A stretch of DNA of 64,000 nucleotides from Octopus vulgaris (taxonomy: Eukaryota). Position 1 is the first letter of the stretch, and every line of letters starts with the position of its first letter. Positions 1,998-59,006 of this stretch are shown piece after piece. Where the stretch lies: the NCBI GenBank assembly GCA_951406725.2, contig OX597823.1:23746001-23810000 (forward strand), in the 5' to 3' direction. The notes below the pieces were generated by a model. The model worked only from the letters and a program-made list of their open reading frames with translations, had not been told where the DNA came from and did no database searches. The position numbers were made by a program, and so were the translations under genes.

Positions 1998-2234
1998 TTG
2001 CTGAGAGGCATTTTGTGAAAGTCGTAGGTGGAATTCTGGATGTATCTGGGAAAACATTGGTCAAGAAAAATGCAACAGTTGATGTTTGTGGAGAAAAATG
2101 TTTGTCTGAGCCAAATTGTTTAGCATTTGAAATAACTAAAAGAGGTGGAAACTGTTACTTAACAAATGAAACTGCAGCTTCCACCAAGAAAATGAAGTCA
2201 GACAAAAGCAGAGATTATTACCAACGAATAAACC
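1998..2234 (+). CDS. Internal exon A1 of a PAN/Apple-Sushi tandem-module protein: PAN/Apple domain type A
   Basis: Acceptor ttccag at 1992-1997, donor gtaatt at 2235; phase 1-1, 237 nt. Encodes AERHFVKVVGGILDVSGKTLVKKNATVDVCGEKCLSEPNCLAFEITKRGGNCYLTNETAASTKKMKSDKSRDYYQRIN, with the C-x3-C-x5-C-x2-F...C-x-L...DYY PAN/Apple pattern. Paralogous to exons at 31225 and 57081. Confidence 0.88.
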
Positions 2235-2474
2235 GTAATTATTCTTTGAATTTTATTATTGGACTTTCTTTTCCTCTTTCTCTGAAATTTGTGAATGCAT
2301 TTGTACTTTATATTATATATATAAACAACCATTTCTGTAAACACACTGACAGATTTACCTAGAAGGACAGGTATAGAAGTGTTTCTCAGAAAAACATGCA
2401 AAATTATGCACTCTAAATACCCTGAGGGCATTGTCATATGGACTTTATCCACCTTGAACAATTTTATGTTCACT

Positions 2475-2863
2475 CTTTTACTTGTTTCAGTCATTTAACT
2501 GTGGCCATGCTGGAGCACCACCTTTAGTCGAGCAAATGGACCCTAGGACTTATTCTTTGTAAGCCAAGTACTTATTCTATCAGTCTCTTTTCCTGAACTG
2601 CTAAGTTACGGGGACGTAAACACACCAGCATCAGTTGTCAAGCGAAGTTGGGGGGACAAACACAAATGCACAAACATATACACACAGACAGAAAATGAAA
2701 GAAGCCCGTTGTATATATGTATATATATATATATATGTATGTGTGTGTATATGTTTGTGCATTTGTGTTTGTCCCCCCAACTTCACTTGACAACTGATGC
2801 TAGTGTGTTTACATCCCCGTAACTTAGCAGTTCAGCAAAAGAGACTGATAGAATAAGTACTTG
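2475..2863. mobile_element. SINE fragment plus a local inverted duplicate of part of it
   Basis: 2565-~2688 and ~2740-2863 are near-perfect reverse complements around an (AT)n spacer. The same motif (gacaac...ggtgtgtttac...taacttagcagttc..caaaagagac..atagaataagtac) recurs at ~26240, ~37495 and ~62995. Confidence 0.7.
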
Positions 2864-2874
2864 TTATATATAAC

Positions 2875-3784
2875 ACCAAGAAAGTTAGAGGTTATGGATC
2901 CAACCCACTAAGGGATAATATTTATCCAATATACTGTTGGTATAATACCCACATTCTTTATACACAAATGTTTTTAATCGCAATGCAATTAACTTATTTA
3001 TTGTATTAAACGGGTGAAGGTAAAGAAATATTTTACCATTAATTTATAATACAAATAAGAAAATGGTGAAACAATTCAGTTGGCTCATCAGCTTTCGGAT
3101 ATTAGAATATTGAATTATTTATTCATTTAACAAAAATGAGAACCTTAACAGCATACATACATACATTAAAATTCAATGCATGTAAGATAAGAATACAATT
3201 ATAAAAATCATAATATAAATTACTGAAATCATTAAAATCACTCCTTACAGCTGTTTCAGCCTATGGATAAAAGTAGTTTTTTTTTCTAGTGCTTATATTT
3301 GTCAATTATATTGAGGTTGTAGATATTTAAAAATAGGGTACTGATACATAACCATAGGCCTCGTCAGAGATTATAAAGAACTTTAAAAATATTAATACAT
3401 GAAACAGAATACACGAATAATTTATTATATAAAAAATATGAACAAATATCCAAATACACTTACACATATACATGTATACATACATAAGCAGAGTATATAT
3501 ACTTTTACATGTGTATAATTACATAAATAAGCACAATTAAACAATAGGTCCAAGTAAATAGACCATTCGTCATATACATATATATATATATACATATATA
3601 CTGGAACATATACATACGTCTATGTTCATGACTACTTAAACAATAATCACTTATTACTATTATTATTATTATTATATTTATCAACAGTAACAATATTATT
3701 AGATTTATTGACAATACATATAATAGATTCCAATATATCAAATATTACGATACAAGATAAACAATCCACAATCCATACAAACAA

Positions 3785-3840
<56 letters not shown>

Positions 3841-3987
3841 CATACAGTTACACCATGGCTTTTAGATATAGTTCTTCTTCATACATACTAGTCCATGCAT
3901 ATGGGTAACAAATAGAAGCAACAACATACTAATATCCGAAAGCTGATGAACCAACTAAATTGTTTCTCCATTTCCTTATTTGTATTA
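2875..3987 (-). mobile_element. Non-coding Penelope-like (PLE-derived) repeat carrying a hammerhead ribozyme and a short inverted terminal copy
   Basis: Homologous by eye to ~34400-34970 (opposite strand) and ~39595-39900. 3050-3105 and 3929-3987 are inverted copies. Flanked by TA-rich tracts and contains the HHR motif at 3242-3372. Confidence 0.6.
3242..3372 (-). ncRNA. Type I hammerhead ribozyme, intact catalytic core, long stem-loop II
   Basis: Minus strand reads aatct-CTGACGA-GGCCTATGG...(~85 nt)...CCATAGGCT-GAAA-CAGCTG-TA-AGG. This gives the CUGANGA and GAAA boxes, a 9-bp stem II, a palindromic mini stem III, a GUA cleavage triplet and a short stem I. Confidence 0.72.
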
Positions 3988-3995
3988 TATATATA

Positions 3996-4390
3996 CTAGC
4001 AGAGATACCCGGCATTGCCTGTGTTACATGCAATTGAAGAATTAGACTTTTCTGTAATGAACTGGAATACCTATGTTTCGAATTTCATCAAAATTGCAGA
4101 TGAGGGTGACTTCCCTCTTCACACACCCGAAAAAAATTGTAATTGTGCCACATGTATCCCATAGTATTGATTTTTATGCGTATATTCCAAAATTCCTGTC
4201 TTATTGAACCTGTTAAAATGATTTTGCTCATGAGAAATGAAGGTCATGGAGCTCTAAAATGTGAGAAATTCTTCAAACTCAGATTATATACTGAAACATC
4301 TATTCCAGTATGTCCTCCCGGTTTTCAAAGAGGAAAACAGATCCCTTGCAGTCAACTATCACCCAGTCTCACTCACCTCCTATATCATTA
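3996..4390 (-). mobile_element. Non-autonomous Helitron-like element, 3' portion (family 2)
   Basis: Minus strand ends ...caggcaatgccgggtatctctgCTAG, a GC hairpin followed by CTAG. It matches the reverse complement of ~38100-38495. Confidence 0.6.
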
Positions 4391-4404
4391 AAATGTTTGA
4401 AAGA

Positions 4405-5837
4405 GTGGTAAGATGAAGGATCACTGCTCAATCTGTAGTAGAGGTGTAGGTAAAAACTCTATAAGATGTACCCAGTGTAAGCTATGGACTCATAAGAGGT
4501 GCAGCAATATCAAAGGAAGGATAACTGGGAGGGTAGCTTTTGTATGTGGCAGATGCTCGGGAGCTATAAATAACACTGAAAATGTGCAGAGAACAACTTC
4601 CGCCACATTCCAGGGAGAAAAACTAGAAGTAGTTGATAGCTTCCATTACCCAGGTGACCAAGTCAATAGCGGGGGAGGGTGCACTGAAAGTGTAGCTGCT
4701 AGAATAAGAATAGCCTGGGCTAAGTTTAGAGAGCTCTTACCTCTGCTGGTGACAAAGGTCCTCTCACTCAGAGTAAAAGGTAGACTGTACGACACATGTG
4801 TATGAACAGCCATGCTATATGGCAGTAAAACATGGGCCATGACTGCCGAGGACATGCATAAGTTTGCAAGGAATGAAGCCAGCATGTTCCGATGGCTGTG
4901 TAATGTCAGTGTGCATACTTGACAGAGTGTTAGTGCCTTGAGAGAAAAGTTGGACCTAAGAAGCATCAGATGTAGTGTTCAAGAGAGGCAACTGCACTGG
5001 TATGGTCATGTGCCGAGAATGGATGTGGATAGCTGTGTGAAAAAGTGCCACACCCTATCGGTTGAGGGAACCTGTGGGAGAGGTAGACCTAGGATGAGGT
5101 GGTGAAGCATTACCTTCAAATATTGGGCCTCACCGAGGCAATGACTAGTGACCGAGACCTCTGGATATATGCTGTGCTTGAAAAGACTCGGCAAATGCAT
5201 GTGTGTGACCATAACCTTGTGGCCTATGCCAGGGGTGTAACCAGTCCACTTATGCATGCCTTTCCTTCATTGGACACTAAACTCTGCTTGCGAAGACCAG
5301 TTGAGGCAAGTGAAATCGAAATCTAAGTCGGAATCAAACTCTATTGTGAAGACCTGTTGAGGCATGTGAAATCAAAATCAAACTTGGTGACTGGCATCCG
5401 TTGCTAATGGAGCACTAAGAGTACCATACGAGTGAGATCATTGCCAGAGCAACAAGCTGGCCTTCGTGCTGATGGCACGTTAAACACACCATTTGAGTGT
5501 GATCATTACCTGCGTTGCCTTACTAGCACTTGTGATGGTGGCACGTGAAAAAAAACATTTGAGCGAGGTTGTTGCCAGTGCTGCTGGACTGGCTCCTGTG
5601 CAGGTGGCACATAAAAAGCACCATTTGAGCATGGCCATTGCCAGTGCCACCAAACTGGCCCTCATGCCGGTGGCACGTAAAAGCACCCACTACACTCTTG
5701 GAGTGGTTGGCATTAGGAAGGGTATCCAGCTGTAGAAACCCTGCTAAATCAGATTGGAGTCTTGTTCACCAGACTTCAGTCAAATTATCAACCCATGCAA
5801 GCATGGAAAGCGGACGTTAAACATTGATGATGATGAT
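4405..5837 (+). mobile_element. 5'-truncated, decayed RTE-clade LINE
   Basis: ORF fragment 4413-4805 (CSICSRGVGKNSIRCTQCKLWTHKRC...LEVVDSFHYPG...RIRIAWAKFRELLPLL), then RTE C-terminal remnants (WYGHV.RM, GRGRPR), a 3' UTR with ggcacgtaaaagcacc repeats and a (GAT)n tail. Same family as 26451-30045. Confidence 0.9.
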
Positions 5838-6216
5838 ATATATGTGTGTGTATGTCTATATCTGTATATATATATATATATATATATCTAAAAATATTAA
5901 TATTTCTAATTCTCTCTAAAGGAGACTATGGCAGCGGTACTGGATATTAATAGTTATCACCAAGAATTATCTTGAGAGAACAGAACCTTATTTTCTACGA
6001 AATTCTGTATGCTTATTATCATGTCTCTAATATGCCCTTAAAGCTGATGTTTTTTCATCTTCTCTCTTTCAATATATATTCACCACGTGTATTTCCCCAC
6101 TAAAATATTTTCTACCGTATATATAAACTTCTTTATCTATCTATCTATGTATATGTATATATATATATATATATGTATACATGTATGTATGTATATGTAA
6201 ATATATGTATATATAT

Positions 6217-6590
6217 TCATCATCATCATTAAACATCCACGTTCCATGCTAGCATGGGTGGGACGGTACCACAAAAGCCGGCCAGTTCAAAACCTGCACC
6301 AGACTTCTCTGACTGTCTTGGCAAGATTTTTACAGCTGGATGCCCTTCCTAACACCAACCACTCAACAAAGTGGACTTTTTATGTGGCACAAGCACAGGC
6401 GAGGTCAGTTTTGACAAGGTTTTTACAGCTGGATGCCCTTCCAAACATCAACCACTTTACAGTGTGGCTTGGGTGCTTTTAAGTGGCCCATGAACTGATA
6501 GGGTCACCAACTACTTGCAAGGCAAAAACTTTTAAGAGGGGAGGAAGAATTGGAGGAGGTGATGATGAAAAGGTTATAGTGAGACAGATA
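6217..6590 (-). mobile_element. RTE-tail short element (truncated LINE or RTE-dependent SINE)
   Basis: Starts catcatcatcattaaacatccacgttccatgctagcatggg...gctggatgcccttcctaac, the shared RTE 3' terminus. A related copy lies at ~56205-56555. Confidence 0.7.
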
Positions 6591-7791
6591 GAATATGCAA
6601 ATTAACCTAAACCATAAATATTGTCTCCTCTTTTTTTGTTTTTGTACATGTCTTAGATAAAATTGGAAAGATTTTACAACTGTGTGCCTTAAACATGCAC
6701 ATGCTGCTATCCTCTTGAATCTAGAAATATCAAACTGATTTTTTCGTTAATACATCTCAAATCCCAAGAATTGTTGGTGCTAGTGATTATGTCCCCTTTT
6801 CATTCTGAGTCGACTGTAAATGGCACTAGATGTTTCAACAAATTAAGAATTTATCATATATTTAGTATACCATTATTTATTCTGTTGTGAAAATTCATGC
6901 AATTGGCCAATCTGAGTTATTTCTCTTACCTCACTTTTGTCTTAAAATATATATCGTTGTTGTTGGCGTCATTGTCGTCGTCTTCTTCTTCTTCTTCATA
7001 TTTAGTGTTACAGTCATCAAGGTGTTGTGTTGTCCTGTATTTCACTTGTTATACTTAGTTTTACTTACTGTCTCCTCCCAACATACAGCGCTTAATCATC
7101 GTGTATGTAAGAGAGCACTTTTTAATGCAAGGCTGATGAAGTGCTACTATAATGTAAAAGAAAAATATCCCAAAGATTACGTAACTTTTCACGTGAAATT
7201 TTTATGTATAGTGGCGTTGAAAACGAATAATTACCAGAAACAATTGTAACTGGTAATTAGAGATGTGCTAAATTCTTTCTTCATCTTATTTAAATCACAC
7301 ACACACGCACGCTCACCTTTTTTCTGCCTTTCGTTGCTTAGACACCGCCTAATCCTCACTTTTCCCTGTGATCAAAACCACAACCACTTCCTTCAATTGG
7401 ATGTCCAATCCTATACAGTTGCAAGCAGTAACCCTGGTTCTTCATGGAGATCCCTTCTGAGGTGGTCTGCCACAAGACCTGGAAGTTGGGAAATATTAGT
7501 ATGATGCCACTCTATGCAGTTATTTGGTGGTTTTCTTACTATTTCAGTTTTTTTTCTTCTTACCTGGAATAGACACTGAAATGTAGGGAAGGATTAAAGG
7601 GAGATGGAGAGCAGAAGATAGAATACGTAATAAAGTTTAAAAAAAAGGAGAAATGGAGAAAAGAAATATAGAGCTGGATATTTGTATACTAGAGAAGTGG
7701 AAATAAAGAGGCAACGGGATAAAATAACAGAATTATTGAGAATGAGGAAATGATAGAAAGAATGTAAATGATAGAAAGTGAGAAGGAATTT

Positions 7792-14589: not shown

Positions 14590-17500
14590 ATGTGAAGTTG
14601 CTCCCTCCCAGTGAATTAATTTACGCGACGGAGAGAAAAACTGATATATAAAACATCATGTAAAAAATTAAAAAATTGACTTCGTACCGAGGGAAGCGAT
14701 AGAAAAATGCTTGAGGCCGATATGGCAAACAAACAAGCTATATGACGAGGGGTAGTCGCTTCGGCACTGTAGAGGTGCGTTTCCCTAGGGAAGAAAAAGC
14801 TAGGGAACATTCAACAATGACATTGAAGTCGGAAGAAGTAGTTCTCCTGCCGTCTTAACTTAGGAAAGAGAACTTCAAAAATCACAGTCACTGATATACA
14901 ACCCAAAATAGATGTGGCCTGGGTGATAGCTGCTATTCTCATAGGCAAAGAAGAAGAAATTTCAATTCTTCAATCTACATGAACTGGGTTGGACAAGATT
15001 TAGAGCTTGTCATCCAAGCAAACCCCTCAGACTTAGAAAAAATGCCCAGTTCCCTGACAATTGGAGAAAATACCAGCCTGATGGTGGTAGTCGAGGGGAG
15101 AAAGCCCAGATGTTACAAATGTGGCGAGAAAGGCCATATAAGGTCGTGCTGTAAGAAGACAGCCAAAGAAAATGCAGCAGAAGAAGCAAGCACGACGCCG
15201 AAGACAACGACCACACCGCTAGAAATAGCAGCCACGTCGCGCACACCAATTGCCGAAGTACAGCCGACAGCGGGAGAAAACAACAACCAGGAGTGGGTCA
15301 CTGTGGAACCTTCAAAAAGAAGACGGAAACGGAAAAACCCACCCTCTTTGGATACACAGGACTATGCTCCGAGACAGACAAGCACACCCACACTCACAAA
15401 TATAGTTACAAACACACACGTAGCCAAAAAAAACACACACACTGGAAAAAGCAAACACAAACACGCACACACCTACCACAAGCACATACACACCTACAAA
15501 CACCCACGCTTCTACAAGCACACACACACCCACAAGCACCCCCCGCTGCACAATCGCCTAATATAAAAAAAAAGAGAAACACCTTCACGGCGATAAACAA
15601 AAATAATAAACTATTAAGAGACCAAATTGTTTTAATGAAATCGGCGAAAAAATATATCACAACAGATGTAAATAGTATTATTCTTGAAAATGTCGAATTT
15701 TATACCATAGACAACACTGACTATTTCGAACTAAAAAAATCTTACCTCGCAAATGACCTCGCAAACCACAACACTCACCGACAGAAAAGAGGAGGGTAAA
15801 ACTACACCCTCTCTCCCATTAAAACAGTAAGTTTTAAACATTCGACTAATTTTTCACATTCTTGTTTAAACTCGGTTGTTTAAATATTCGCGGCCTGGGG
15901 TTGTATTGGAAGCAAGGCTACCTCCTTAATGACTTTGGGTCGCATCGTTTGGATGTAGTTGTAATTACTGAATCCAGACTGAGTGGGCTGCAGGCTTTTT
16001 CACCCCTTCTAAATGGCTACGAGAAATACATTTCTCCCTGTTGATCGGGAGGGGGCAGGGGAGTGGCAGTGCTGGTCTGAAAAAACCTGGATTTAGAGAT
16101 TAGAACTGTCTTTATAGATCCGGAAGGCAGGTTGGTCGTTTTGGATGTGACGCACAGCAATGGTAAAGTGTTCAGGCTGGTTGCTGTCTATGCTCCCTGC
16201 GAAGGAAAAGCCGGGCAGAAAGATTACTTCAAAAGCCTAGAGAATTTTCTCGGCACGTCGAACACGTTAGTATTGCTAGGTAACTTCAAATTAATTTGCG
16301 ATGCACACGTAGATTATGTTGGCTTGAGAAAGAATAGGAGGGGATTACCTCACCTCAACGATCTGCTAAGTCGTTTCGAGTTGGCAGATCGATTCAGACT
16401 GGACCACCCAGACGTTCCAGCATGGACCTGGGCAAGAAACAATGGGTCGTCCAGATCTTACATAGATAGAATCATAACTAGAAGGAAAGATAAGAAAATA
16501 CTTAGCTGTCCACAACACCATATCGTCAGCTACAGCGATCACAAATTGGTGACCTGTACACTCGACATAGATAGCATGTGGAAGCTAAACAAGTCACTAT
16601 TGGACTGTGAAGCCTACAGGAAGCAGATTAAACAATTAGTAATGAGGTTGTTAACCGGATCCATTATCAACAACAAATGGTGGCACGCACTAAAAAGAGC
16701 CATCAAATTTGAGTCAATTAGGTTTAGCAAAGAATTAGCTAGTGCTAGAAACAAAGTTGAAAAGGAACTAGTTAAGGCAATAGATGAAGCAATGAGGTCA
16801 GGCAATGCATTGAAAGTGTTAGCGGCGAGGTTGGCACTCAACCAACATCTCAAAGCTAAATATCAAGGGTGCATTGTCAGGGCTAAGATCTGTGCAATGA
16901 GACAGGAAGGGATCAACGCAGCCGGATGGGCCTGGGTGGTAGAGTGCCAGCGTGGCAACAACTCAACCATTCGATCTTTGACAGACCCAAATGTTTGATC
17001 AGTAAACGAACCTGTGGAGATGTGCAAGGTGTTTCACGATCATTTCGCCCAGCTATTTGAGAGGAGCGGCGGACTGGAGTGCGGGGAGAAGCTCGCAGAC
17101 TTCCTAGCTGGTTCGCCGTGTCTATCGAGGCCGGATGCGGAATCTTGTGAGGCGTCGATCACAGCCAAGGAAGTTGAGGATGTGTTGGCAGACTGCGGCT
17201 GGGACTCAATGGTCTGCCTTACGAACTCTATAGTAGCACGCCAGACTTGTTTGGGCGCCTACTTGCATGCATGTACACCAACTGGCAGCAGAACGGGAGA
17301 ATTCCTAAGTCTGTGAGCCGAGGGGTGGTAGCGCTGTTAAGAAAGGAACCAAACAAGGGGGATTTAATTGATAATTTTTGGCCCATCACTCTGCTTAATG
17401 CAGAGTTGAAGATCTTGGCCAAGGTCTTAGCAAAAAGGTTGGCGTGGGTCGTGGGTGAACTTGTTGGCGAGGCGCAAACTTGCGCCATCCCTGGAACTAC

Positions 17501-18945
17501 CATCCATGATCTCAACTTTTTACGCTATACCTTAGAAAGGGTAAATAGGATTCCTGGCAAGGGTGGGGCTATGGTCGACTTGGACCAATCGAGAGCGTTC
17601 GATAGGGTGGACCATCAGTATCTGGTGGTGGTCCTTGTGGCAGCTGGCTTCGGCCCGACCTTCCGTGGATGGATCAACGCTTTATACAGCAACATCGAAT
17701 TGGTAGTTCAGGTGAACGGTTCCTTTTCGGAGCTGTTCCACATTGAACGTTCAGTACGTCATGAGTGCCCTCTCTCCCCGCTTCTCTACGTTTTGGCCCT
17801 TGAGCCATTGCTGAGGAGGTTGGAAACTATGAGGGGCACTCCACAAGATCTAGGGTGCGGAAAGTCAGCTTCAGCGTATGCAGATGACATCACCGTCATT
17901 GTATCCCGAGTCGAGCACCTACAGTGGGTGGGTGAGGCCTTAAGGGATTATGAAGCAGTGGCAGGAGTGAGAGTCAACCGGGATAAATTGGTTGGCTTGC
18001 AACTCGGCACCTGGAGGGGCAAGTCGATGTCTTCCGACAGTGTTATAGGACGTTGGACAGAAGGGCCGGTGAAAATGCTTGGAATCTGGTTAGGTCCAGA
18101 TCTCCAGATAAAGAAGAACTTGAGCGAGGTGGCGAGAAATGTGGCTCTCCTAACACAGACCTGGTCTGAGTGGAAGCTGTCCTTGAAAGGGAGGGCGGAG
18201 GTTGCAGAGGTGTTTATCGCCTCTGTAATCACTTACCGCCTGACTGTCGTGCCTTGCCCCGATTCATGGCTGAACAAGCTGGAATACATGCTCTTTCGCT
18301 TTTTGTGGAGGGGCAGCAGACCTCTTGTAAGGCACTCTATTTGCTGCCAAAAGCTGCTTAAGGGTGAGTTAGGGATGCTGTAGCTAAAAATGCGCAGACA
18401 TGCACTCAGGCTTAGGCACCTCTGGCTTTACCTGGACAGTGAGCAGGTATGGTCTCCATTCGTCAAGCTGTTATTTCCACAGTTCACATCGTTTAGCAAA
18501 CTGAACCCATGGATCAAATGTAGACTGAGGTTGGGCGTGTGGCATGTAGAGTGCCGTCAGACACTTGTGCTTCTCTCCCAGTCGGGCAATGCTGGTGGCG
18601 GAGGTACTACCTCATTCTTCTATAGAGGGTTAGTAGAGTTTAAGTGTGACGACATCCTGGGAGAAACCCTAGGCTTCAACGAAGATCAACTGGCCAGCCT
18701 GTTCAAAAGAACATTCAGTCCGGGACCTATGGATAATTACCAAAAGTCCCTGGCCTGGTAATGTTACAGAGGAGCTTTACCGGTTCGAGATAAGTTCTTT
18801 AGACATGGGTGTGCACCTTCGCCGGTTTGTGCAAGATGTGAGAGGGACAGTGAAACTGTTCTGCATGCGATTGTGCAATGCCCCAAGGTGACTGAACTCT
18901 GGGCTTATGTCGAACACCTGCTGTTGCATTTGAGAAGAGTACAGG
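14590..18945 (+). mobile_element. Decayed Tx1/L1-like LINE (ORF1 zinc knuckle; ORF2 APE endonuclease + RT + C-terminal zinc finger)
   Basis: ORF1 remnant VVVEGRKPRCYKCGEKGHIRSCC (CCHC). ORF2 pieces: LNIRGL/VITESR, VAVYAP, SRSYIDRI, SDHKLV (APE); WPITLLNAELKILAK, DQSRAFDRVDH, CPLSPLLYVLALEPL, AYADDITV (RT); C..C....ETVLHAIVQCP. Multiple stops and frameshifts; the 3' end appears truncated. Confidence 0.9.
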
Positions 18946-21589: not shown

Positions 21590-21823
21590 CAAATGATGAA
21601 ATTATTAAATTTAAAAATACTATGATACCAGGAGAGGATACTTTTGAACGGGTGAATAATGTGAGCTTAAAGAAGTGTGCTCAAGCTTGTAATCAAAATC
21701 CAAAATGTAATTCCTATGAGTACCATGAAAAACACAAGTTCTGTGATCAAAGTAATGTGACTCACTTGTCTCATGAACTTCAACCCAGCAAATGGGGTTG
21801 GGATGTTTACATCATTAACCCAG
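21590..21823 (+). CDS. Internal exon B1: PAN/Apple domain type B
   Basis: Polypyrimidine tract plus ctccag acceptor (ag 21588-21589), donor gtcagt at 21824; phase 1-1, 234 nt. Encodes NDEIIKFKNTMIPGEDTFERVNNVSLKKCAQACNQNPKCNSYEYHEKHKFCDQSNVTHLSHELQPSKWGWDVYIINP. Paralogous to 39116 and 58773. Confidence 0.88.
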
Positions 21824-24779: not shown

Positions 24780-24950
24780 ATTATTCACAAATTGAGTGTG
24801 GACCTCCAAAAGAAATTGTTGGTTCAGTGAAGTCCTATAATTCCACCATGTATAAATCTGAAGTCACCTATACTTGCCCAAAAGGAGAAAAAATGAAGTC
24901 AATGTGTGAAAAGAACAATGAGTGGACTCCAGTCGTATCTTCTTGTTATG
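24780..24950 (+). CDS. Internal exon C1: short Sushi/CCP/SCR domain
   Basis: Acceptor ttccag (ag 24778-24779), donor gtaata at 24951; phase 1-1, 171 nt. Encodes YSQIECGPPKEIVGSVKSYNSTMYKSEVTYTCPKGEKMKSMCEKNNEWTPVVSSCY, with the CCP pattern CGPP...YTC...C....W......C. Paralogous to 54094. Confidence 0.85.
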
Positions 24951-26617: not shown

Positions 26618-27110
26618 GGTGTTTTTAACGTGCCACCTGCACAGGTGCCAGACAGAGCTGGCGAACGGCCACGAACGGATGGTGCTTTTACGTGTCACCG
26701 GCACGGGGCCAGGCGATGCTGGCAACGGACACTAACGGATGGTGCTTTTACGTGCCACCGACACGGGGCCAGACAGAGCTGGCAAACGGCCACGAACGGA
26801 TGGTGCTTTTACGTGTCACCGGCACGTGGGCCAGCCGAGGCTGACAACGGACACGAACGGATGGTGCTTTTACGTGCCACCGACATGGGGTCAGACAGAG
26901 CTGGCAAACGGCCACGAACGGACGGTGCTTTTACGTGTCACCGGCACGGGGCCAGGCGAGGCTGGCAACGAACACGAACGGATGGTGCTTTTACGTGCCA
27001 CCGACACGGGGGCCAGGCAGAGCTGGCAAACGGCCATGAGCGAATGGTGCTTTTACGTATCACCGGCACGGGTGCCAGACGAGGCTGACAGCGGACATGA
27101 ACGGATGGGT
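26618..27110. repeat. ~60-bp tandem repeat (about 8 units, alternating A/B types) in the RTE 3' UTR
   Basis: ggtgcttttacgt recurs at ~26681, 26741, 26802, 26864, 26925, 26985 and 27046, alternating gtcaccggcac and gccaccgacac. Confidence 0.9.
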
Positions 27111-29983
27111 CACTTAACCCCTGCTTTCTGATATATGATTTCATTTTGATTGTTCTCACTGGTCTTGCCAGGTCTTCTGACGCACAGCATACTTCCATAG
27201 GTCTCGGTCTCTGGTCATTTCCTTGGTGAGACCTAGAGTTCGAAGGTTGTGCTTCACCACCTCGACCCAGGTTTTCCTGGGTCTACCTCTTCCACAGGTC
27301 CCCTCAACTGCTAGGGTGTGGCACTTTTTCACACACCTATCTTCATCCATTCTCGCCACATGACCATACCAGCGCAATCGTCTCTCTTGCACACAACATC
27401 TGATGCCCCTTAGGTCCAACTTTTCTCTCAAGGTACTTACACTCTGTCGACTACATCCAACGGAGCATACTAGCTTCATTTCTCGCGAGCTTACGCATGT
27501 CCTCAGCAGTCACGGCCCATGTTTCACTGCCATGTAGCATGGCTGTTCGTACACATGCATCATACAGTCTGCCTTTTACTCTGAGCGAGAGGCCTTTAGT
27601 CACCAACAGAGGTAAGAGCTCCCTAAACTTTGCCCAGGCTATTCTTACTGTAGCTGTTACACTTTCAGCACACCCACCCCCACTACTGACTTGGTCACCA
27701 AGATAACGGAAGCTATCAACTACTTCTAGTTTTTCCCCCTGGAAAGTGACGGAAGTTGTTTTCTGCAGATTTTCAGAGGTTAATGCTCCCGAGCATCTGC
27801 CACATACAAAAACCATCTTCCTAGTTAGCCTTCCTATGACATTGCTGCACCTCTTATGTGTCCATAGCTTACACTTGGTGCATCTTATAGAGTTTCTACC
27901 TACACCTTTTCTACAGATCGAGCAGGGCCATCTACCTGAAGGCGTTTGTGATTTGTCTACCTACCTACTTATTACGACTTTGGTTTTAGCTAGGTTGACT
28001 CTAAGGCCCTTCGATTCTAAACCATGCTTCCACACCTGAAACTTCTTCTCCAGTTCTGATAATTACTCAGCAATTAGAGCAAGGTCATCAGCATAGAGGA
28101 GCTCCCAGGGGCATCCTGTCTTGAATTCCTCCGTTATTGCCTGGAGGACTATGATAAATAGAAGGGGGCTGAGGACTGAGCCTTGGTGGACCCCTACCTC
28201 TACCCGGAATTCTTCACTGTACTCATTGCCAACCCTCACCTTACTAGCAGCGTCCCTGTACATGGCTTGCATAGCTCTCACTAACCATTCATCTATTCCT
28301 AGTTTCCTCATTGACCACCATATGAGGGATCGGGGGACCCTGTCAAAGGCTTTCTCCATGTCAACAAAAGCCGGGTACAGGGGCTTATCTTTGGCTAGGT
28401 ATTTCTCCTGCAGGTGCCTTACCAGGAATATAGCATCAGTGGTACTTTTCCCTGGCACGAACCCAAACTGCATCTCATCTAAACTAACTCTCTCTCTAAT
28501 TAGTTGGCTTATGACCCTCTCTGTAACCTTCATCACCTGATCCAACAGCTTGATACCTCTGTAATTATTTGTATCTAGGGCATCACCTTTACCTTTGTAG
28601 CAGTTGACTATTATGCTGCTACACCAGTCATTGGGTATGACTCCTTCATGTATCACCTGATTAACTATACAGGTGACTAGGCTATAGCCGACACTACCAG
28701 ATATTTTGAGCATCTCTGCAGTGATACCTGATGGGCTTGGGGCTTTCCCTGTCTTCATGCTTCTAATTGCCTTAGCTACCAAGGAACTATCAACCCTGAT
28801 AGCTGGTCCCTCTGTTGGGTCAACGTTCGGCAGACTCTCTTTATCCCATTCATTTTCTTTATTCAGCAACCTTTCATAGTGGCGTCTCCAAGCCTCTCTC
28901 TTTGCATCCTCGTTTAGCGCAAGTGTATCATCTTCCATGCGAACACACTTCTCTCCCACCACATCACAATTTTCTCTCACACACTGTCTTGCAACGCGAA
29001 ACACCTCCAGTCTTTGGTCCTCACGGCGCAGAACATTGGCAAATTTTTTCTTATCTGCTTCCCCTCTGGCTAGATAGACCTGTCTCCTAGCTTCCCTTTT
29101 AGCAGTCTGATACAATTCCCTGCTACCACCATTCTTCCAGTGCTTCCAAGTCTGTCTCTTTTCTCTAATAGCCCTGTCTACGACACTGTTCCACCACCAC
29201 GTTACCTTGGGACGAGAGGGGACTTTGCACCAGCCACAGATCTGGTCAGTGGCTCTCAGCAGGTTGTCCCTTAGAAACGTCCAGTTGCCCTCTACCCCAT
29301 GTGATACTCTATCCCCTTCTACTTCGTCAAAGGCTTCAAGTAACATGTCTCTAAATCTCTGTCCATTCACAGGATCCTTAAGCTTCCAGATCCTTCTTCT
29401 CCATGTTAGTCGTCTTCTGGTTGTCCTCCTACTCCTGATCCTAAAGTCACTAACTACCAGTCTATGTTGTGGGGTACATTCTTCGCCTGGGAAGGTTTTG
29501 GCATTTATAAGTAGCCATCTCTCCCTTTGCCTGGCAAGGATGTAGTCAATTTGGCTGGTATGTTGGCCGATCGGTAGGTGACTAGGTGGCTGGTAGGTTT
29601 CCTGAAGTTAGTGTTGCAAATCATAAGATTATTTGCATCGCAGAACTCCAGCAGCCTGGTTCCCTCCTCGTTGCGGGAACCAGAGCCATAGCCTCCATGT
29701 ACGCCATGGAAGCCCCCAGCATGTCGTCCAACGTGACCATTGAAGTCACCAGCCTCAAAGAGAAGGTCTCTGTCGTTCGTCAACGAGGTAGTCTGCAGTA
29801 GAGTGTCATAGAATAGGTCTTTCTGTCCATCAGGTAGCCCCGACTGAGGAGCATAGGCTGATATAATGGTTGCTAAACTATGATGAAGCGCTAATCTAAT
29901 CTATAGTATTCTGTCGCATACTCTGATTACCTCAATTACTTTATCTACCCATTTCTCAGCGAGAAGTATACCCACGCCTCCAA

Positions 29984-31224: not shown

Positions 31225-31461
31225 ATGCTGCGATCTATTTTGTGAAAGTAAATGATGCATCTCTGGATGTGACGGGGAAAATATTGAGTAAGAATGCAGT
31301 AACAGCAGACGCTTGTGCAGAAAGATGTCTTTCTGATAAAAATTGTTTATCATTTGAAATGTCTAAAGGAAATGGTAAATGTTACTTATTGAAGCAAACT
31401 GCAGCTTCCTCCAAGAAAATAAAAACAGACAAAAGCAGAGATTACTACCAACGAGTAAAAT
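31225..31461 (+). CDS. Internal exon A2: PAN/Apple domain type A
   Basis: Acceptor ctctag (ag 31223-31224), donor gtaatt at 31462; phase 1-1, 237 nt. Encodes AAIYFVKVNDASLDVTGKILSKNAVTADACAERCLSDKNCLSFEMSKGNGKCYLLKQTAASSKKIKTDKSRDYYQRVK. Confidence 0.88.
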
Positions 31462-35035: not shown

Positions 35036-36407
<1,372 letters not shown>

Positions 36408-36536: not shown

Positions 36537-36850
36537 TGGTGAACACTTCTCACCCCCACCACCAATACCGGTGAACACTTCTCACCACCAATACCGGTGA
36601 ACACTTCTCACTACCCCCACCACCAATACCGGTGTATACTTCTCACCACCAATACCGGTGAACACTTCTCACCACCAATACCGGTGAACACTTCTCACCC
36701 CCACCACCAATACCGGTGAACACTTCTCACCACCAATACCGGTAAACACTTCTCACCACCAATACCGGTGAACACTTCTCACCACCCCTACCACCAATAC
36801 TGGTGAACACATCTCACCACCAATACCGGTGAACACTTCTCACCATCTAC
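36537..36850. repeat. ~26-bp minisatellite (about 11 units)
   Basis: Unit ggtgaacacttctcaccaccaatacc with a variable C/CAC insert. Confidence 0.92.
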
Positions 36851-37259
36851 ACCGGATATGCCCTCCTCCCTCCTCCTCCCCCACCACCATTGCGTGTGTC
36901 TCTCCCCTCCTTCACATATGCTTTCACTGTGTACTACCCCTTCCCCCCACCAAGTCAAGCTGCTAGCACCGCAGCTCATTAACTGCCCCACTGATCTTAC
37001 GTTACCTCCTGTTTAGAATCTGGCACTGCCTCAATCCGACCATCTCCTTCCAGTCCCCCTCCCCGTCTCGTGATATCCTACGTTTTTTATTTCTTCTGCA
37101 CCAACCCTTGCCTTGTCATCGTTCCTCCTTACCCAACCTTCCCCACTGGTGCTTCTCTTTATTACCTGCACCCCCCCCCCCACTATCTCTCCCTCTCTTT
37201 CCACTGGTGGAACCTTTTTCAGCTAGACCCCCCCCCAACTCAACTCTAGAAAAAGCTTG

Positions 37260-39115: not shown

Positions 39116-39346
39116 CTGACAAGCCTTTGCAGATTAAAAAAGTTAGCATACAAGAGAAGGATAATATTGGAAGGCTTAGAAATGTGAACTTAAAGACGTG
39201 TAATGAAGCTTGCCATCAGTATCCGGGGTGTAATTCTTATCAGTATAATGAGAAAGCTAAATTCTGTGATCTGAGCAATGCAACTCATTTGACTGGTAAC
39301 TTTAAACCCAACAATGGAAGTTGGGATGTGCACATAATTAACCCAG
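39116..39346 (+). CDS. Internal exon B2: PAN/Apple domain type B
   Basis: Long T/C tract plus ttcag acceptor (ag 39114-39115), donor gtctgt at 39347; phase 1-1, 231 nt. Encodes DKPLQIKKVSIQEKDNIGRLRNVNLKTCNEACHQYPGCNSYQYNEKAKFCDLSNATHLTGNFKPNNGSWDVHIINP. Confidence 0.87.
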
Positions 39347-48501: not shown

Positions 48502-49768
48502 TTGGGTTTTCCGGAAATTTCATGCCGACTTATAGTTGCTTACCTTTCGACTTATTTTAGAAGATCGTTGAGTTCTTAAAATAGGATTTGACTACACAGT
48601 TTAAGCTATCTTTTTGTGGAAGAAGGTTTATGTTCCTATAACCTGTGTTAATTCTATAACCCTTTAAAATGGAAGATAAGAAAGTTCATTTTCGGCACTT
48701 GATGCTTTTCTTTTTCTGTAAAGGAAAAAATGCCTCACCAGCAACCAAAGAAATGTGCACAGTTTACGGTGATGCTTCTTTATCCAAAAGAACTCTGCGG
48801 AAGTGGTTCGCAAGGTTCCAAACTGGATATTGTAGCCTTATTGATAAAGAGCAATCAGGCAGACCATCCACTACAGATGATGACCAAATCAAGTCATTAA
48901 TTGAGAATAACCCACATTGCAAAACCCGAGAATTGGCAGAAAACCTCAACCTATCAAAATCCATCGTTCATGAGTGCCTGGTAAAGATTGGGTACACAAA
49001 TCACTATGATGCTTCGGTACCATATGAGTTGAGGGAGAAGAACTTTTTGGATCGCATTTCCATCTGTGATTCCCTTTATAAATGGAATGAAAACATGCCT
49101 TTTCTAAAGCAAATTATGACTGGTGATGAGAAATAGATTATCTACCGAAATGTTCAGAGAATACGATCCTGGAGTAAGTGACATGAGCCACCCTTAGCCA
49201 CCCCAAAAGCAGGTCTTTACCCTAAAAATGTCTTGCTGTGTGCCTGGTGGGATTGGAAAGAAATTCTGTACTATGAGCTTCTCCCAAGTAACCAGTCAAT
49301 TAATTCTGAGAAATACTGCTCACAACTAGATGAGTTAAAAGCAGCAATTCAAGAAATGTCCAGAATTGGCCAACAGGAAGGGTGTTGTTTTCCAACATGA
49401 TAATGCAAGACCGTACATTTCTTTGGGAACCAGACAAAAATTGCTGCAGCTCGGCTGGGATGTGTTATCCTACCTTCCTTATTCACCAGATATTGCTCCT
49501 TCAGATTTTCACTTATTTAGGTCTCTACAGCATAGTCTTAATGGTAAAAATTTCAATTCTGTGGCTGACATAAAACGATACCTTGATAAATTCTGTACCA
49601 TGAAACCACCTCAATTCTGGGAAGAGGGTATTTTGAAATTAAAGGAAAGATGGAGATGCATTGTGCAACAAAATGGTTCATATTTGGTTGATTAAAAATG
49701 TAATGGTAAGTATTTATTGACCGTTTTCTTTCCTTTGAAAATCAGCACAAACTTTCCAGACAACCCAA
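48502..49768 (+). mobile_element. Full-length decayed mariner (DD34D) transposon
   Basis: TA at 48500-48501 and 49769-49770; imperfect TIRs ttgggttttccggaaatttcatgccgactt / aaatcagcacaaactttccagacaacccaa. Transposase 48669-49695 has TGDEK, HDNARP and YSPDIAPSDF, broken by stops and a frameshift. Confidence 0.95.
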
Positions 49769-50880: not shown

Positions 50881-50884
50881 TAAA

Positions 50885-50936
<52 letters not shown>

Positions 50937-50939
50937 TTG

Positions 50940-53700: not shown

Positions 53701-54093
53701 GGCATTAGCCACTCTATCAGATGTTACTCATCACTGGTCACTTTGCATCAGTTTAGCCATCACATGATGCCACCACCCTCTCTTGATTAAAAGGGGACTG
53801 GAGTGACATGAAACAAAGTGTTTTGCTCAAGAACACAACATGCTGCCTGGTCTGAGAATCAGAGCCATGATCTAATGATCATGAGTGCAGCAGCCTAACC
53901 ACTAGGCCACATGCCTTCACACACAGACTTACTCACACACACACACACACACGTAAACATTCATTTATGTATCTATTTATATCTGTTTGTCTCAGTCAAT
54001 ATATTCTATTTCAAATTTGTCATTATCTTCTCATGTTCACCCTCATTCTCACATATATTAACCATTGATCTCAATTTCTCTGATCACTTCCAG

Positions 54094-54264
54094 TTTTGAC
54101 AATAATTGACTGTGGACCTCCAAAAGACATTTTTGGTGCATCAAAATCTTACAGTACCACCACCTATAAATCTGAAGTGATCTATACATGTCAAAGAGGA
54201 GAAAAATTAAAATCAGAATGTAAGAAGGACAGTGAATGGGCTCCATTGTCATCTGGTTGTAAAG
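54094..54264 (+). CDS. Internal exon C2: short Sushi/CCP/SCR domain
   Basis: Acceptor ttccag (ag 54092-54093), donor gtaatg at 54265; phase 1-1, 171 nt, same length as C1. Encodes LTIIDCGPPKDIFGASKSYSTTTYKSEVIYTCQRGEKLKSECKKDSEWAPLSSGCK. Confidence 0.85.
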
Positions 54265-54844
54265 GTAATGTAAATAGGTTCTATATTGTTGCTCCTGCTG
54301 ATGAAATTTTGTTTTTATTTTTGTGTTGAGTTTTTTTTCAAGGGAATCATTGCTGTGTCCATGACAATTCCTGTTATGTTTATGGCTAATGGAGGAGACT
54401 ATCGTCGTACCTGAGACATTGACAAATGCTGGTAAAAGAGTGGAGTTCATTAAAGCTACTCAAGGGACAGGTATTCTGGGCAATGGATTAAGCCGGCTTC
54501 ACAAAAACAGGAAGTCTGGAAAGGTCCAGAAGACTTCCACATAATTTCCAGTCACTACCTTTCATATTCAGGGCTTGCTTGTGAAGCAAATTTTTAACCA
54601 TATAGCCCAATCTCCACCCGATACCACATGATAGTTAAGTAAATTTTTTACTTCCATAATTATACCTCAGCTTATCTTACTCATTTTTCTTGTAATTTAT
54701 AACTTGACTTTTTAAATTTGTACAATGTGTCCTTATCCAAAATTGTGCACAATGCCTTGAACTTAGTGCTTCTACACTAGAATTTGGCAATCACTTGAAT
54801 CAGACTTCTGATGTTCTTGTCATATACCAATTCACCATCCTTAA

Positions 54845-55265
54845 ATATTCTTTTCTACTCTAGACACAAGGCCTGAAATTCTTGTGGAGGGGGCCATTCA
54901 ATTAGATCGACCCCAGTACACAACTGTTACTTAATTTATTGACCCCAAAAGGATGAAAGGCAAAGTTGACCTTGGTGGAATTTGAACTTAGAATGTAAAC
55001 ACAGATGAAATACTGTTAAGCATTTCACCTGCCATGGTAATATTCCTGCCAGCTTGCCACTTTCCACTTGAATATTATATTAATAATAATAACAGTCCCA
55101 GATTTGGGCAAAGAAAGGCAGAAATTTTTGATTTGCAGTCTTTAGTCGACATCACTAATTCCAGTTCCTGACTGGTATTTTATGTTATTGACCCATGCAA
55201 GAATGAAAGGTGAAGTTGACATTGGCTGGATTTGAACTGAACACATAATGAGTCTGAATAGCTTT
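54845..55265 (-). mobile_element. Two decayed tRNA-derived SINEs
   Basis: gaccccaaaaggatgaaaggcaaagttgacc..ggaatttgaact motif (B-box-like on the minus strand) occurs twice; a similar decayed copy lies at ~1290-1420. Confidence 0.65.
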
Positions 55266-57080
55266 GCTTCCAATTCTTTAATTACTATACATGTATACAA
55301 TTAAATGAATATAAGAATGACAATGCACTTCTCTTGAATAATGCAGGACCTCTGTCTAGGTGCAACTGGAGAATCCTATAATTGAAAATCATCTTCAACT
55401 CTAAGAATAAGTGCCCTCTCCAGTTATTGTTTCTTGATCTATTGTTTTATACTGTGGACCCCATCCATTCTTCCCCTTGTTGTCACTTTAACCTGACGTT
55501 AAAAAAATTCAAATTGTTGTAAGGGAGATAACCCAATCCCACCTGAAGCACTACCTCTAGGGTCCATCTGGATGCATCGATTTTTGTTTATAAACTGACC
55601 ATGATGTTTTCCTCCCTCCAACCATAGAGACATTATATGCCTCAGGCCATTTGGGTCTAATGGGTTGCCTATAATGCTAAGCACTTTAGATGTGAAAAAC
55701 CAATGGTCACTCTCTGACCAGTCATAGCAATCAGCCAGCAACCAAATCCACTCAGAAGGCTCTCGTTTACCCTGGGCTATAGTAGGAGACTTGTTTAAGG
55801 TTTTACGCATTGAAATTGAATAGAGAAACATATGTTTGGAAAGCAAACTTATTTCCGTACAGCCATGCCTGCTTCACTCAATGCATATTTGTTCAAAATG
55901 AACAGCTGTGAAAAAAATACTCAGGGTCACTTCATGAATGGAAAATATATAGTTAAGTGGCTACTTATTGAACAATGATATTATGATTAACTGAAACTTA
56001 TTAATATATATTCATTTTACTGTTCAGTGAGTGATGAAATATTTATGTTAATGACTTCTCCTGGTTATATGATTGTAAAAATCACTTTTTTTATTCTCAT
56101 TTCACTAAAGATCTAATTTTGTTGAATATAATTTCTTAGGTTGATAAATTAAGTTGTAAATGTTCACATTGACTACATACTTATATCAATCATCTTGGTG
56201 AAGATCATCCTTTAATGTCTGCTGTCCATGCTAGCATGGGTGGAATAGTTTCACAGGAGCCAGCTAAGCAGAAGCCTGTATCAATCTTCTGTGACTGTTT
56301 TGTTAAGATTGTTACAGCTGGATGCCTTTCCTAACACCAACTACCCAGCAGAGTGGACTTCGTGCTTCTTACTTGGCACAAGTGCATGTGAGGCCAATTT
56401 TGGCAAGGTTTTTACAGCTAGATCATCTTGTAAATGCCAACCACTTTACAGTGTGGACTGGGTGCTTTTAAAGTGGCACTGGCACTGACAGGGTCACCAA
56501 GTAACTTGCAAGGCAAAAATCTTTTGAGAAGAAAGAGTCATTGGAGGAGGTGATCAAAGTAAAAGTATTTTTGTTTTCCTAAGGAAAAAATTACACAATC
56601 AGTAGAGTGATGTTTCTTGTCATGAATAGACTAGCCATATTCGGTTACATTCTTTTACATTCTGGATTCAAATCCACCAGGGGGTATTTCACATTTCATA
56701 CTCCTGAGATTGATAAAACAGTCTTACTTAAGAACTAAATTTCATTCATTTTCATGTATCCTCACACTGCAATATGTATGACTTTGTTACCATCGATGAT
56801 AATTATAATTATTCTTGCTGTTGAAGGTGAAGTATTGACAAAATCATTTGAGCATCAGATAAAATGTTTTGTGATATTTATTTTGGCTCTTGAACTTCTG
56901 GGTTCAAATCTGGCTTTTGACAACTTCATCTTTCCGAGGCTAGTAAGTAAAAATGCTGCCAGTCAAGTGTTGAGGCCTATTGTAGTTAGCCATTTCTTAC
57001 ATCAAAGCTTTGGCATTCTTCTATGTTAGAAAATATTACTGTTATTAGTTACATTGATCTAAATTTTATTTTAATTTCAG

Positions 57081-57320
57081 CTGTTGAGAGCCTTTTTTTG
57101 AAAGTAAACAATGCAATTCTGGATGTATCTGGGAAAATATTGTGGCCTAAGAAAAATGTAACAGCAGAAGCCTGTAAAAAAAAATGTCTATCTGACAAAA
57201 ATTGTTTATCATTTGAAATAAACAAAGAAAAGGGACAATGTTACTTATCGAAGGAAAGTGCAGCTTATTCCAAGGAATTTAAGTCAGCCAAAGACAGGGA
57301 TTACTACCAGCGAGTGAAAC
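57081..57320 (+). CDS. Internal exon A3: PAN/Apple domain type A
   Basis: Acceptor tttcag (ag 57079-57080), donor gtaatt at 57321; phase 1-1, 240 nt. Encodes VESLFLKVNNAILDVSGKILWPKKNVTAEACKKKCLSDKNCLSFEINKEKGQCYLSKESAAYSKEFKSAKDRDYYQRVK. Confidence 0.88.
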
Positions 57321-58772
57321 GTAATTATTATTTGTATTTTATTATTGGGCTCCTCTTTTTCTTTTCTTCTGAATTTTGTGATTCCATTTTCACTTAATAA
57401 TATATAGATAACTATTTCTGTAAGAACATTGGGAGGTTTATTAATGAGGAGGAGACATAAAGATGTTCTTGAGAAAAAGAATGAAGAGAAGAACTGTGTA
57501 CGCTGTTAAAACATTCTGATACAGCATTTCTTCAACTGGAATTCTTTTCTATATATTTCCAGTTGTTTGTTTCTTATTTTACATCAGAAACGAAACTGCT
57601 GTTCTTTTACTTAAACTTGAAGTGTAGTAGCAGTAGCAATTGTTGCAGTAATGAGTTTCTATTTATTTGCCCACTTTGACATGACTTATTGCTGGTACAG
57701 CACAGTATTTCACAAGGGATGTTATGTTCTACATAACACGAAATATAAAATAACAGAGAAAGAAATGCTATTCTACAGATTCATGTATTTTGTACATTTT
57801 GACATGGTTGTTATGGCTAGATGTTTTTCCTATCATCAACCATTATACCACATAAAGAACTTTACTGAGACTCAAAATTATTTCACCTTATACAGGTTCT
57901 TATTCAGAGTAGTTCCATGGCATTAAAAGCATAAGTGCCAGCAAATTCACCCAGTTTGCTTTTAAAGATCTTGTGTATTTCTTTTCAAATCCTTCAACCT
58001 TGAAATCCTAGACATAAGGGAAAATTCACTAGATTTATGGATCTCAATATTAAGTATGTCATTACTATCTTGATAAACCTTTTGGGCCAAAAAGAAAGTT
58101 GAGCTATTTCTCTGCATAACTATGAGGAACTGCAACTTGGCTGGAATGAGAGATATTACTGCAATATTTACCCTGGGTCCCCTCAAGAACTTCAGACTTG
58201 TTCACAGATAAGTTTTGTAGAGAGACAGTTTCAACTGATTTGAACAGCCATCCCATAATGAGATTTAAGAAATTATCAGTTATCTTCAAAAAATTTGATT
58301 TAAACATTAAGATTACAACTAATCTATATTCAACTAAGTGGATATTATTTTAGAATTGATGTGTCCAGCAAATAATACCCTATATAAAACTTAACAAGGA
58401 GAACAGACATCTTCATAAGAATTCTGGCAATTTTCCTTGGTAGCAGAATCAGATTGCATCAAGAGTGATACTCAAACCTTTGCCTGAATGTTTTCATTTT
58501 GGATAATCAATTTAGACATACTTTTTCTGATGGTGTGCTCTTGTTTAAGATTGCATGGCTGTAACAACAGACATCTTAGTTGATCACATGTTAAAGGAAG
58601 TTTTTACCCTACAAAAGCACACTTTAAGGTTAGTAATGTACAAACTCAGGTGAATTGTTTTGTAACTTGTGGACTATTTTGTGAATTAGTTGTCAGTGTA
58701 TAATGCACATGTGTGGGTGTGTGAATGTGCATGTCAGCATTTAAAATGTATTTCTTTCTTTTTTTCTTCCAG

Positions 58773-59006
58773 CCAATAATGAACATTTCAAGCTTAAAAA
58801 AGTTAGCATACCAGTAGTGGGTATTTTAGGACAGTATAAGAATAAGACCTTAAAGGAATGTAATGAAGAATGCTACAGATATGATGGATGTAATTCTTAC
58901 CAGTATGAAGAGGAAAATAAATTATGTGTTCTGAGTAATGTGACTCAGTCGACTGATAAACTTAAACCCAGCAAAAAAAAAGTAGATGTGTACATAACTA
59001 ACCCTG
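58773..59006 (+). CDS. Internal exon B3: PAN/Apple domain type B
   Basis: Polypyrimidine tract plus ttccag acceptor (ag 58771-58772), donor gtcagt at 59007; phase 1-1, 234 nt. Encodes NNEHFKLKKVSIPVVGILGQYKNKTLKECNEECYRYDGCNSYQYEEENKLCVLSNVTQSTDKLKPSKKKVDVYITNP. Confidence 0.87.

Follow-up and report, generated by a model that had tools for sequence, protein, structure and literature searches.

We analysed 64,000 nucleotides of the Octopus vulgaris genome (contig C10, positions 23,746,001-23,810,000, in a genome of 2.8 Gb; hereafter the window). The window is an internal segment from the middle of a 1.64-Mb feature, an array of PAN and Sushi exons that is likely part of one giant gene, and its eight exons make up about 2% of the whole. 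They are array exons 78-85 of 343, about 5,400 residues from the start of the predicted chain. The exons belong to three classes, PAN type A (PAN-A), PAN type B (PAN-B) and Sushi/CCP (C), and are numbered here within the window:

1998..2234, plus strand: exon A1, 237 nt, PAN type A, array exon 78 of 343
21590..21823, plus strand: exon B1, 234 nt, PAN type B; the intron ahead of it (19,355 nt) is the array's longest
24780..24950, plus strand: exon C1, 171 nt, Sushi/CCP
31225..31461, plus strand: exon A2, 237 nt, PAN type A
39116..39346, plus strand: exon B2, 231 nt, PAN type B
54094..54264, plus strand: exon C2, 171 nt, Sushi/CCP, spliced to A3 in a contig of run X1
57081..57320, plus strand: exon A3, 240 nt, PAN type A
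58773..59006, plus strand: exon B3, 234 nt, PAN type B, at whose donor an X1 contig departs exactly from the genome

A first-pass annotation of the window, made from its letters alone, had proposed these eight exons, and all of them have the AG/GT ends and lengths that it gave. They sum to 1,755 nt, or 585 codons, in a single frame with 0 stops. The domain calls also held: in a Pfam run, all six A and B exons exceeded the cut-off for PAN_1 (PF00024), and both C exons exceeded that for Sushi (PF00084), narrowly, at 21.2 and 24.4 bits against 20.7. Public O. vulgaris proteins match the window exons at 100%. Intact copies of these exon types number 343, all on a single strand, a recurrence far beyond chance.

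Genome searches were seeded with one exon per type, and 23.18-25.10 Mb of C10 was then mapped with profiles and splice sites. The one-exon searches gave 109 (A), 113 (B) and 134 (Sushi) matches. Almost all of these lie at 23.27-24.98 Mb on the C10 plus strand, an interval that holds every one of the 134 Sushi matches. The 1.92 Mb examined around the array contains no N. Beyond 23.3 Mb, the array consists of 343 intact exons on the same strand (105 PAN-A, 105 PAN-B and 133 Sushi). All are phase 1 with lengths that are multiples of 3, and their consecutive junctions create zero stops. The strict A-B-C order described earlier holds inside the window but not gene-wide, where the units are 73 ABC, 27 ABCC, 2 ABCCC and 3 AB. 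The three modules seen at first were a small part of the 105 in the full array, which ends in a GON domain. The array descends by tandem duplication from a small signal-PAN-PAN-Sushi-GON gene and carries a four-module super-repeat, with identity at offset 4 above that at offset 1 for both A (0.66 vs 0.58) and B (0.57 vs 0.43). The gene model, on contig C10, is as follows:

23,362,495-25,003,050, plus strand: giant gene model, 349 coding exons
23,362,495-549, plus strand: signal exon, outside the window
23,363,457-486, plus strand: 30-nt micro-exon, outside the window
23,364,742 to about 24,983,170, plus strand: PAN/Sushi array
24,990,060-25,003,050, plus strand: four GON exons, outside the window, with TGA at 25,003,048

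Read straight through, the 349 exons extend over 1,640,556 bases and contain 73,056 coding bases for 24,352 residues. The whole predicted chain would have a mass of about 2.7 MDa, the modules alone accounting for 2.68 MDa. The scale, the terminal GON domain and the small paralogue described below, which links the gene to GON-Abd-1 and to a broader molluscan PAN/Sushi/GON family, had all been overlooked in the first reading of the window.

Some irregularities were seen within the array. One PAN-B exon (C10:24,093,506-24,093,706) is shortened to 201 nt and keeps its frame, splice sites and four cysteines. Two decayed intronic fragments, one A and one B, at about 24,195,900 and 24,207,900 on C10, are the sole broken copies detected. 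The splice donors are class-specific, with GTAATT in 96/105 A exons, GTCAGT in 84/105 B exons and GTAATG or GTAACA in 91/133 C exons; this is possibly a class-specific splicing signal, or merely shared ancestry.

Upstream of the array lies a second, much smaller gene of the same make-up:

C10:23,269,851-23,294,199: small paralogue, signal-PAN-PAN-Sushi-GON, intact

Its best match is GON-Abd-1 of Abdopus aculeatus, and the upstream GON exon set at 23.28-23.29 Mb belongs to it. Probing with the small gene revealed a single homologous set of 5' leader, signal exon and micro-exon, which lies 2.2 kb ahead of array exon 1. The signal exon was found by this homology scan, a generic signal-exon scan having missed the true exon. 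The first exon of the giant gene is hydrophobic and homologous to that of the small gene, with an ATG and a phase-1 donor, and the call of a signal peptide was made from homology and hydropathy. At the other end, the GON domain is encoded by four exons followed by TGA, with polyadenylation-type hexamers nearby, and two public models (O. bimaculoides XP_014770611.2 and O. vulgaris CAI9728796.1) extend from the last modules into it. The region holds two GON exon sets, and the signal exon, 5' leader and micro-exon flanks are likewise present twice, one set per gene; the two copies match at 42/42 and 36/42, 30/30 and 27/30, and 30/30 and 27/30 positions, respectively, and the next best hits reach 28-29/42 and 22/30. 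When the signal exon of the giant gene was searched as DNA against the whole genome, it matched itself alone; the known paralogue was missed, which shows this search to be insensitive. The giant gene is a tandem paralogue of the small gene, and the small gene is the orthologue of GON-Abd-1. The public model of the small gene in O. vulgaris (CAI9728787.1, 385 aa) does not include the signal exon or the PAN-A exon. A third GON-domain locus, at contig C1:49,326,822-49,334,254, is possibly the true ADAMTS9/GON-1 orthologue.

The 343 exons, the one signal exon and the one GON domain likely form one gene. The alternative, that they are several independently transcribed pieces as annotated or a polyprotein cleaved to single venom-like modules, is very unlikely. 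It draws on the National Center for Biotechnology Information (NCBI) models, which split the locus in three Octopus species, and on the small paralogue, which shows that a single module can stand with GON as a unit; moreover, internal promoters or terminal exons that are non-homologous would evade homology scans. However, within the array those scans found no further signal exon, 5' leader, micro-exon or GON, and no internal gap exceeds 19.4 kb. One C-to-A join is spliced (see below), and the split models that were inspected start mid-domain, without a signal peptide. Cleavage of a polyprotein is unsupported, as convertase motifs are nearly absent: furin motifs occur at 0/342 exon junctions and KR or RR at 2/342.

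In O. vulgaris the annotation divides the locus into CAI9728790.1 (SVEP1-like), CAI9728792.1 and CAI9728796.1 (ADAMTS20-like), which hold 65/80, 12/14 and 57/62, respectively, of the exons that they span. CAI9728790.1 covers the part of the array that includes the window. Its 4,470 aa are filled by 68 A, B or C domains, 65 array exons being matched, and its SVEP1/polydom label (vWA, EGF, pentraxin) was not borne out, for a model that had no separate Pfam scan. P0015, a model from O. sinensis, agrees with 35 out of 36 consecutive array exons, and models of O. bimaculoides are collinear with the array from exon 46 to exon 343 at 71-93% identity, with 23/26 (P0001), 11/11 (P0017), 11/12 (P0003) and 14/17 (P0002) domains mapped. 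P0005, P0016 and part of P0019 map ambiguously, in recently reshuffled stretches.

Two artefactual explanations were considered and rejected. There are no identical exon pairs in the array and the median best-paralogue identity is 69-79%; therefore, the array is not a falsely duplicated haplotype. The O. sinensis and O. bimaculoides models match it module for module, and thus it is not an assembly artefact either; nor is there any N, and the longest self-match in the region (3.7 kb at 97.8%) is dispersed like a retroelement. A pseudogene array was rejected since 343 of the 345 copies detected are open, whereas neutrality predicts a stop in about 259 of 343 at a synonymous divergence (dS) of 0.11, half the nearest-pair value.

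Sequencing runs X1, X2 and X7 were guessed to be RNA, their library type and tissue not being on record, and two of the seven window junctions lie wholly inside the stretch compared with them. A 351-nt contig of X1 runs from C2 directly into A3, with the 2.8-kb intron absent, at depth 2; its first 36 letters lie elsewhere. A second X1 contig, also at depth 2, follows the genome up to the B3 donor and departs from it precisely there. The C2-A3 join was not seen in X2 or X7, and X7 had no exon pieces at all. The signal exon, the micro-exon and the first A exon were uncovered in all four runs compared (X6, X1, X9 and X19), which is neutral as evidence. A splice from a C exon to the next A was the test that the first-pass annotation had named for its model, and the X1 contig answers it for one junction only. 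We lean towards a full-length mRNA of about 73 kb being made.

The array might instead serve as a bank of exons from which alternative splicing includes subsets of modules, giving shorter signal-(modules)n-GON isoforms and a secreted repertoire of binders like that of Dscam or dumpy. Symmetric phase-1 exons tolerate skipping, the public gene models skip exons, the modules are diversified at sites with a ratio of nonsynonymous to synonymous rates (dN/dS) above 1, and Dumpy, a comparable repeat gene, is alternatively spliced according to PMC2930355. On the other hand, the only junction seen joins neighbours, the exons form repeated A-B-C cassettes instead of clusters of alternatives for each slot, and P0015 contains 36 consecutive exons, though it is a model and not an mRNA. 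We regard such a bank as unlikely; if real, it would give a mollusc a splicing system on the scale of Dscam.

Exactly four cysteines are present in 340 of the 343 array exons; each PAN class has four that are near-invariant, and four cysteines and a tryptophan are found in at least 95% of the 133 Sushi copies. The Apple subclass of the factor XI type has six cysteines and is defined by a third disulfide that joins the domain ends, and with exactly four cysteines in 340/343 exons the array domains fall outside it. No exon contains a transmembrane segment, the maximum 19-residue hydropathy being 1.38. With the signal-type exon ahead of the array, this agrees with the extracellular product that had been expected from the window. 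The chain is 14.1% lysine, with a net charge of +1,063 and 265 N-glycan sequons. Most of the charge is carried by PAN-A (mean net +7.4), and 99 of the 105 modules are net positive.

A structure model of the small paralogue had high confidence in its two PAN domains and low confidence in GON. The best fold match of its PAN-A domain is the HGF N domain (Z 12.6, root-mean-square deviation 2.1, 82 aligned), heparin complexes of which appear in the Foldseek list, and the galactose-binding proteins SML-2 and MIC4 also match the PAN fold. CCP folds were matched weakly by the Sushi domain (Z about 4). The GON domain (PF08685) is C-terminal in P0012 (E 1.5e-32) and in P0003. Its first 45 residues resemble the collagen I C-propeptide (E 2e-5), with COLFI below the Pfam cut-off, and the Atlas neighbours of GON proteins mix GON and COLFI; a COLFI-type trimerising end may be suggested by this likeness, which covers about 45 residues of sequence only. 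It is extremely improbable that GON instead keeps the protein inside the gland cell, in the endoplasmic reticulum (ER), to help secretion or to scaffold cargo. In GON-1/ADAMTS9, the GON domain does act within the ER in ER-to-Golgi transport, as stated in PMC3338439, but the predicted chain has no ER-retention tail, and an intracellular role would leave 343 diversified binding domains unexplained.

Overall dN/dS is 0.76 for A, 0.79 for B and 0.71 for C, and there are a few invariant scaffold sites. The site model M2a fitted better than M1a, with twice the log-likelihood difference at 235, 129 and 129 (A, B and C), and placed 16-23% of sites at dN/dS 2.1-2.6. Because gene conversion can mislead tree-based tests, we designed a cross-test in which sites were chosen in one half of the array and measured in tree-free disjoint pairs of the other half, with three codons trimmed off each exon end and two frequency models used. 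In five of the six tests dN/dS was 1.3-1.8 under both frequency models. We take this as moderate evidence for a minority of sites with dN/dS above 1, in exons whose frames and cysteines are strictly kept.

These rates bear on another possibility, that the full-length chain is a mechanical, Dumpy-like fibre in the matrix of cuticle, egg, spermatophore or sucker, whose surface residues drift almost freely. A giant three-domain repeat with a super-repeat would suit this role, as would frame and cysteines that are strictly conserved while dN/dS is high, and a COLFI-like C-terminus could seed assembly. Nevertheless, there is no transmembrane anchor, and ligand binding accounts more readily for the strong net positive charge and for the sites above neutrality. 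We consider a structural fibre improbable.

We tentatively favour, at slightly below an even chance, an array that is one gene spliced mostly in order, whose product would be a secreted, cationic and glycosylated chain of about 24,350 residues that binds polyanionic glycans at many sites in the secretion of a gland, for example saliva or mucus. A three-exon cassette would have been amplified by unequal crossing-over, later as the four-module super-repeat. Each exon would fold as an independent disulfide-bonded bead, in a chain about 1 micrometre long by typical domain sizes. The basic PAN-A domains, with their fold nearest to the HGF N domain, may bind sulfated glycans, mucins or cell surfaces with avidity; the Sushi domains would be spacers, and the fast-changing sites would vary the binding surfaces. 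The collagen-propeptide-like GON domain may nucleate oligomers or aid export from the ER. The first-pass annotation had also proposed a multivalent binding protein, which we infer here rather than observe.

Several points weigh against this glycan-binding chain. The C2-A3 splice has depth 2 and occurs in one of the three RNA-guessed runs, the A3-B3 junction was not seen in X1, X2 or X7, and a contig of X2 reads unspliced across the B3 donor. Full length is supported by neither a long read nor a protein. Exons that are all phase 1 permit almost any skip, a stop arising in only 220 of 117,649 donor-acceptor combinations, and the public models do skip exons (65/80, 12/14 and 57/62 included). The signal peptide was called by homology and hydropathy only. 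The salivary link comes from the name of the paralogue and its source paper. The small-paralogue model has a predicted template modelling score of 0.39, and its GON part is of low confidence (predicted local distance difference test mostly <50, residues 244-372); a shared fold alone demonstrates no function. As for selection, the sixth cross-test was null (dN/dS 0.9-1.0), the overall values of 0.71-0.79 also fit a spacer-like structural chain, and gene conversion, or constraint from splice enhancers at synonymous sites, could have inflated the values above 1.

A stronger version of the same proposal, which we hold to be doubtful, is that a one-module salivary GON gene became a 349-exon, 1.64-Mb gene for a soluble single chain (about 24,350 residues, 2.7 MDa and about 1 micrometre). 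This would be ten times the size of any GON protein in the survey, and perhaps no known unanchored secreted protein is larger. Its 210 PAN domains would have been diversified by positive selection into a repertoire that nets or cross-links glycans in the secretion.

If the chain is made at full length, a protein of titin or Dumpy scale with about 690 disulfides would pass through the secretory pathway. The gene has been hidden in three octopus annotations as ADAMTS20-like, SVEP1-like or uncharacterised fragments. The exact exon map allows peptides and reads to be rescued from octopus saliva, mucus, ink and egg data sets. A one-module gene beside a 105-module copy is a natural series for studying the origin of giant proteins and the role of GON without a protease, and also for asking whether avidity or repertoire drives repeat growth.

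The window contains other elements. Two retroelements of the long interspersed nuclear element type with reverse transcriptase matches lie in introns at 26941-29607 (minus strand) and 14895-18380 (plus strand); the former comes from a family that is present across the region in several copies, each about 3 kb and 86-98% identical. Mariner-type transposase remnants are at 48660-49397 (plus strand), with a match to the Mos1 helix-turn-helix, and at 63370-63966 (plus strand), with no Pfam match at 1e-4. A 181-codon open frame at 60816-61358 (minus strand) looks by eye like the end of a Penelope-type element and had no Pfam match at 1e-4. Tandem repeats occupy 26618-27108 (61-bp unit, eight times), 36538-36855 (26-bp-based unit) and 35920-36405 (a 486-bp TA run).

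Elsewhere in the genome, A-like and B-like PAN exons, often paired, are on contigs C13 (three loci), C18 (two) and C17 (one). Those on C18 are two near-identical PAN pairs 74 kb apart, and C17 has two near-identical PAN exons 2.4 kb apart. A partial PAN-A copy with a stop stands isolated at C6:48,618,707. The PAN pair is an older octopus building block, one named relative being P0052, a PAN-PAN-WSC protein.

The repeated A-B-C architecture was found in eight proteins among the best 150 of 308 matches in a representative library. Seven of them carry a species name, in every case Octopus, in keeping with the lineage-restricted architecture that had been suggested. As gene models are fragmented, squid or cuttlefish may have the architecture too. 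Thirty-eight short matches fit array exons at 48-85%, and the eight that were looked up are Logan records; therefore, other species may carry such arrays.

The literature searched gave no description of the giant gene, bioRxiv supplements and subscription papers being outside its reach, which agrees with the earlier view that the gene is uncharacterised. Array accessions and domain names are absent from the supplements, possibly incomplete and possibly using other identifiers, of proteome studies on O. vulgaris skin mucus and ink (PMC10138644, PMC10142993). GON and PAN are absent from the main text of bioRxiv 10.64898/2026.04.09.716377, and a term search of PMC12607849 gave no hits. The domains and a small relative are known, and it is the hundred-fold amplification that is undescribed; the product may be one of the largest secreted proteins.

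The closest known relatives are GON-Abd-1 and GON-Abd-2 of Abdopus aculeatus (UniRef R4G2C1 and R4G7D0) and their Octopus orthologues (XP_014778328.1, XP_029640861.2 and CAI9728787.1), which share with the giant gene the order of signal exon, 30-nt micro-exon, PAN-A, PAN-B, Sushi and four GON exons, along with a homologous 5' leader and splice flanks. Ruder et al. (2013) reportedly obtained the GON-Abd proteins from posterior salivary gland transcriptomes. In contrast, the GON-Abd proteins are 465 aa with one module, against 24,352 aa and 105 modules, and the orthologue at this locus is the small neighbour, not the giant gene. PAN, often with Sushi, also precedes a C-terminal GON, with no protease domain, in Lottia LOTGIDRAFT_153264 (402 aa, PAN-GON), Sepia pharaonis CAE1175485.1 (359 aa, PAN-Sushi-GON) and an Atlas cluster of 97 proteins, mostly from molluscs (GON in 95%, PAN in 27%). 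These molluscan PAN, Sushi and GON proteins differ from it in having 300-400 aa and no tandem amplification. GON proteins ranged from 219 to 2,289 aa, about a tenth of the giant model, in the Pfam survey of 2012 as given in PMC3338439.

ADAMTS9, ADAMTS20 and C. elegans GON-1 share the C-terminal GON with the giant gene, and this is likely the source of the 'ADAMTS20-like' label on CAI9728796.1. A Pfam scan of P0012 showed no reprolysin metalloprotease or thrombospondin repeats, and the exon chain is made up solely of A, B, C and GON exons. The PAN fold is shared with Toxoplasma MIC4, Sarcocystis SML-2, factor XI and the HGF N domain, and tandem PAN domains with the annelid protein CAD5122242.1 (3,398 aa), which has at least 17 PAN matches and SUEL lectin domains. 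However, the multi-PAN adhesins and lectins have far fewer domains, no Sushi spacer and no GON, and sequence identity to the solved structures is 12-24%.

Drosophila Dumpy is a membrane-anchored protein of about 23,000 aa. It is likewise giant and extracellular, with cysteine-bonded triads on frame-preserving exons (PMC2930355). Its triads are EGF-DPY-EGF, with a ZP domain and 78 coding exons (same text), whereas the giant gene has PAN-PAN-Sushi, GON, 349 exons and no transmembrane segment; the likeness is thus one of analogy, not homology. A ZP domain had no match in Pfam scans of P0012 and P0003, which, with no membrane anchor, sets the giant gene outside the Dumpy-like class and leaves the analogy. 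Apolipoprotein(a) and complement receptor 1 are secreted or surface proteins that grew by tandem duplication of multi-exon cassettes. They are built of other domains, in near-identical repeats, and are much smaller, whereas the exons of the giant gene have a median best-paralogue identity of 69-79%.

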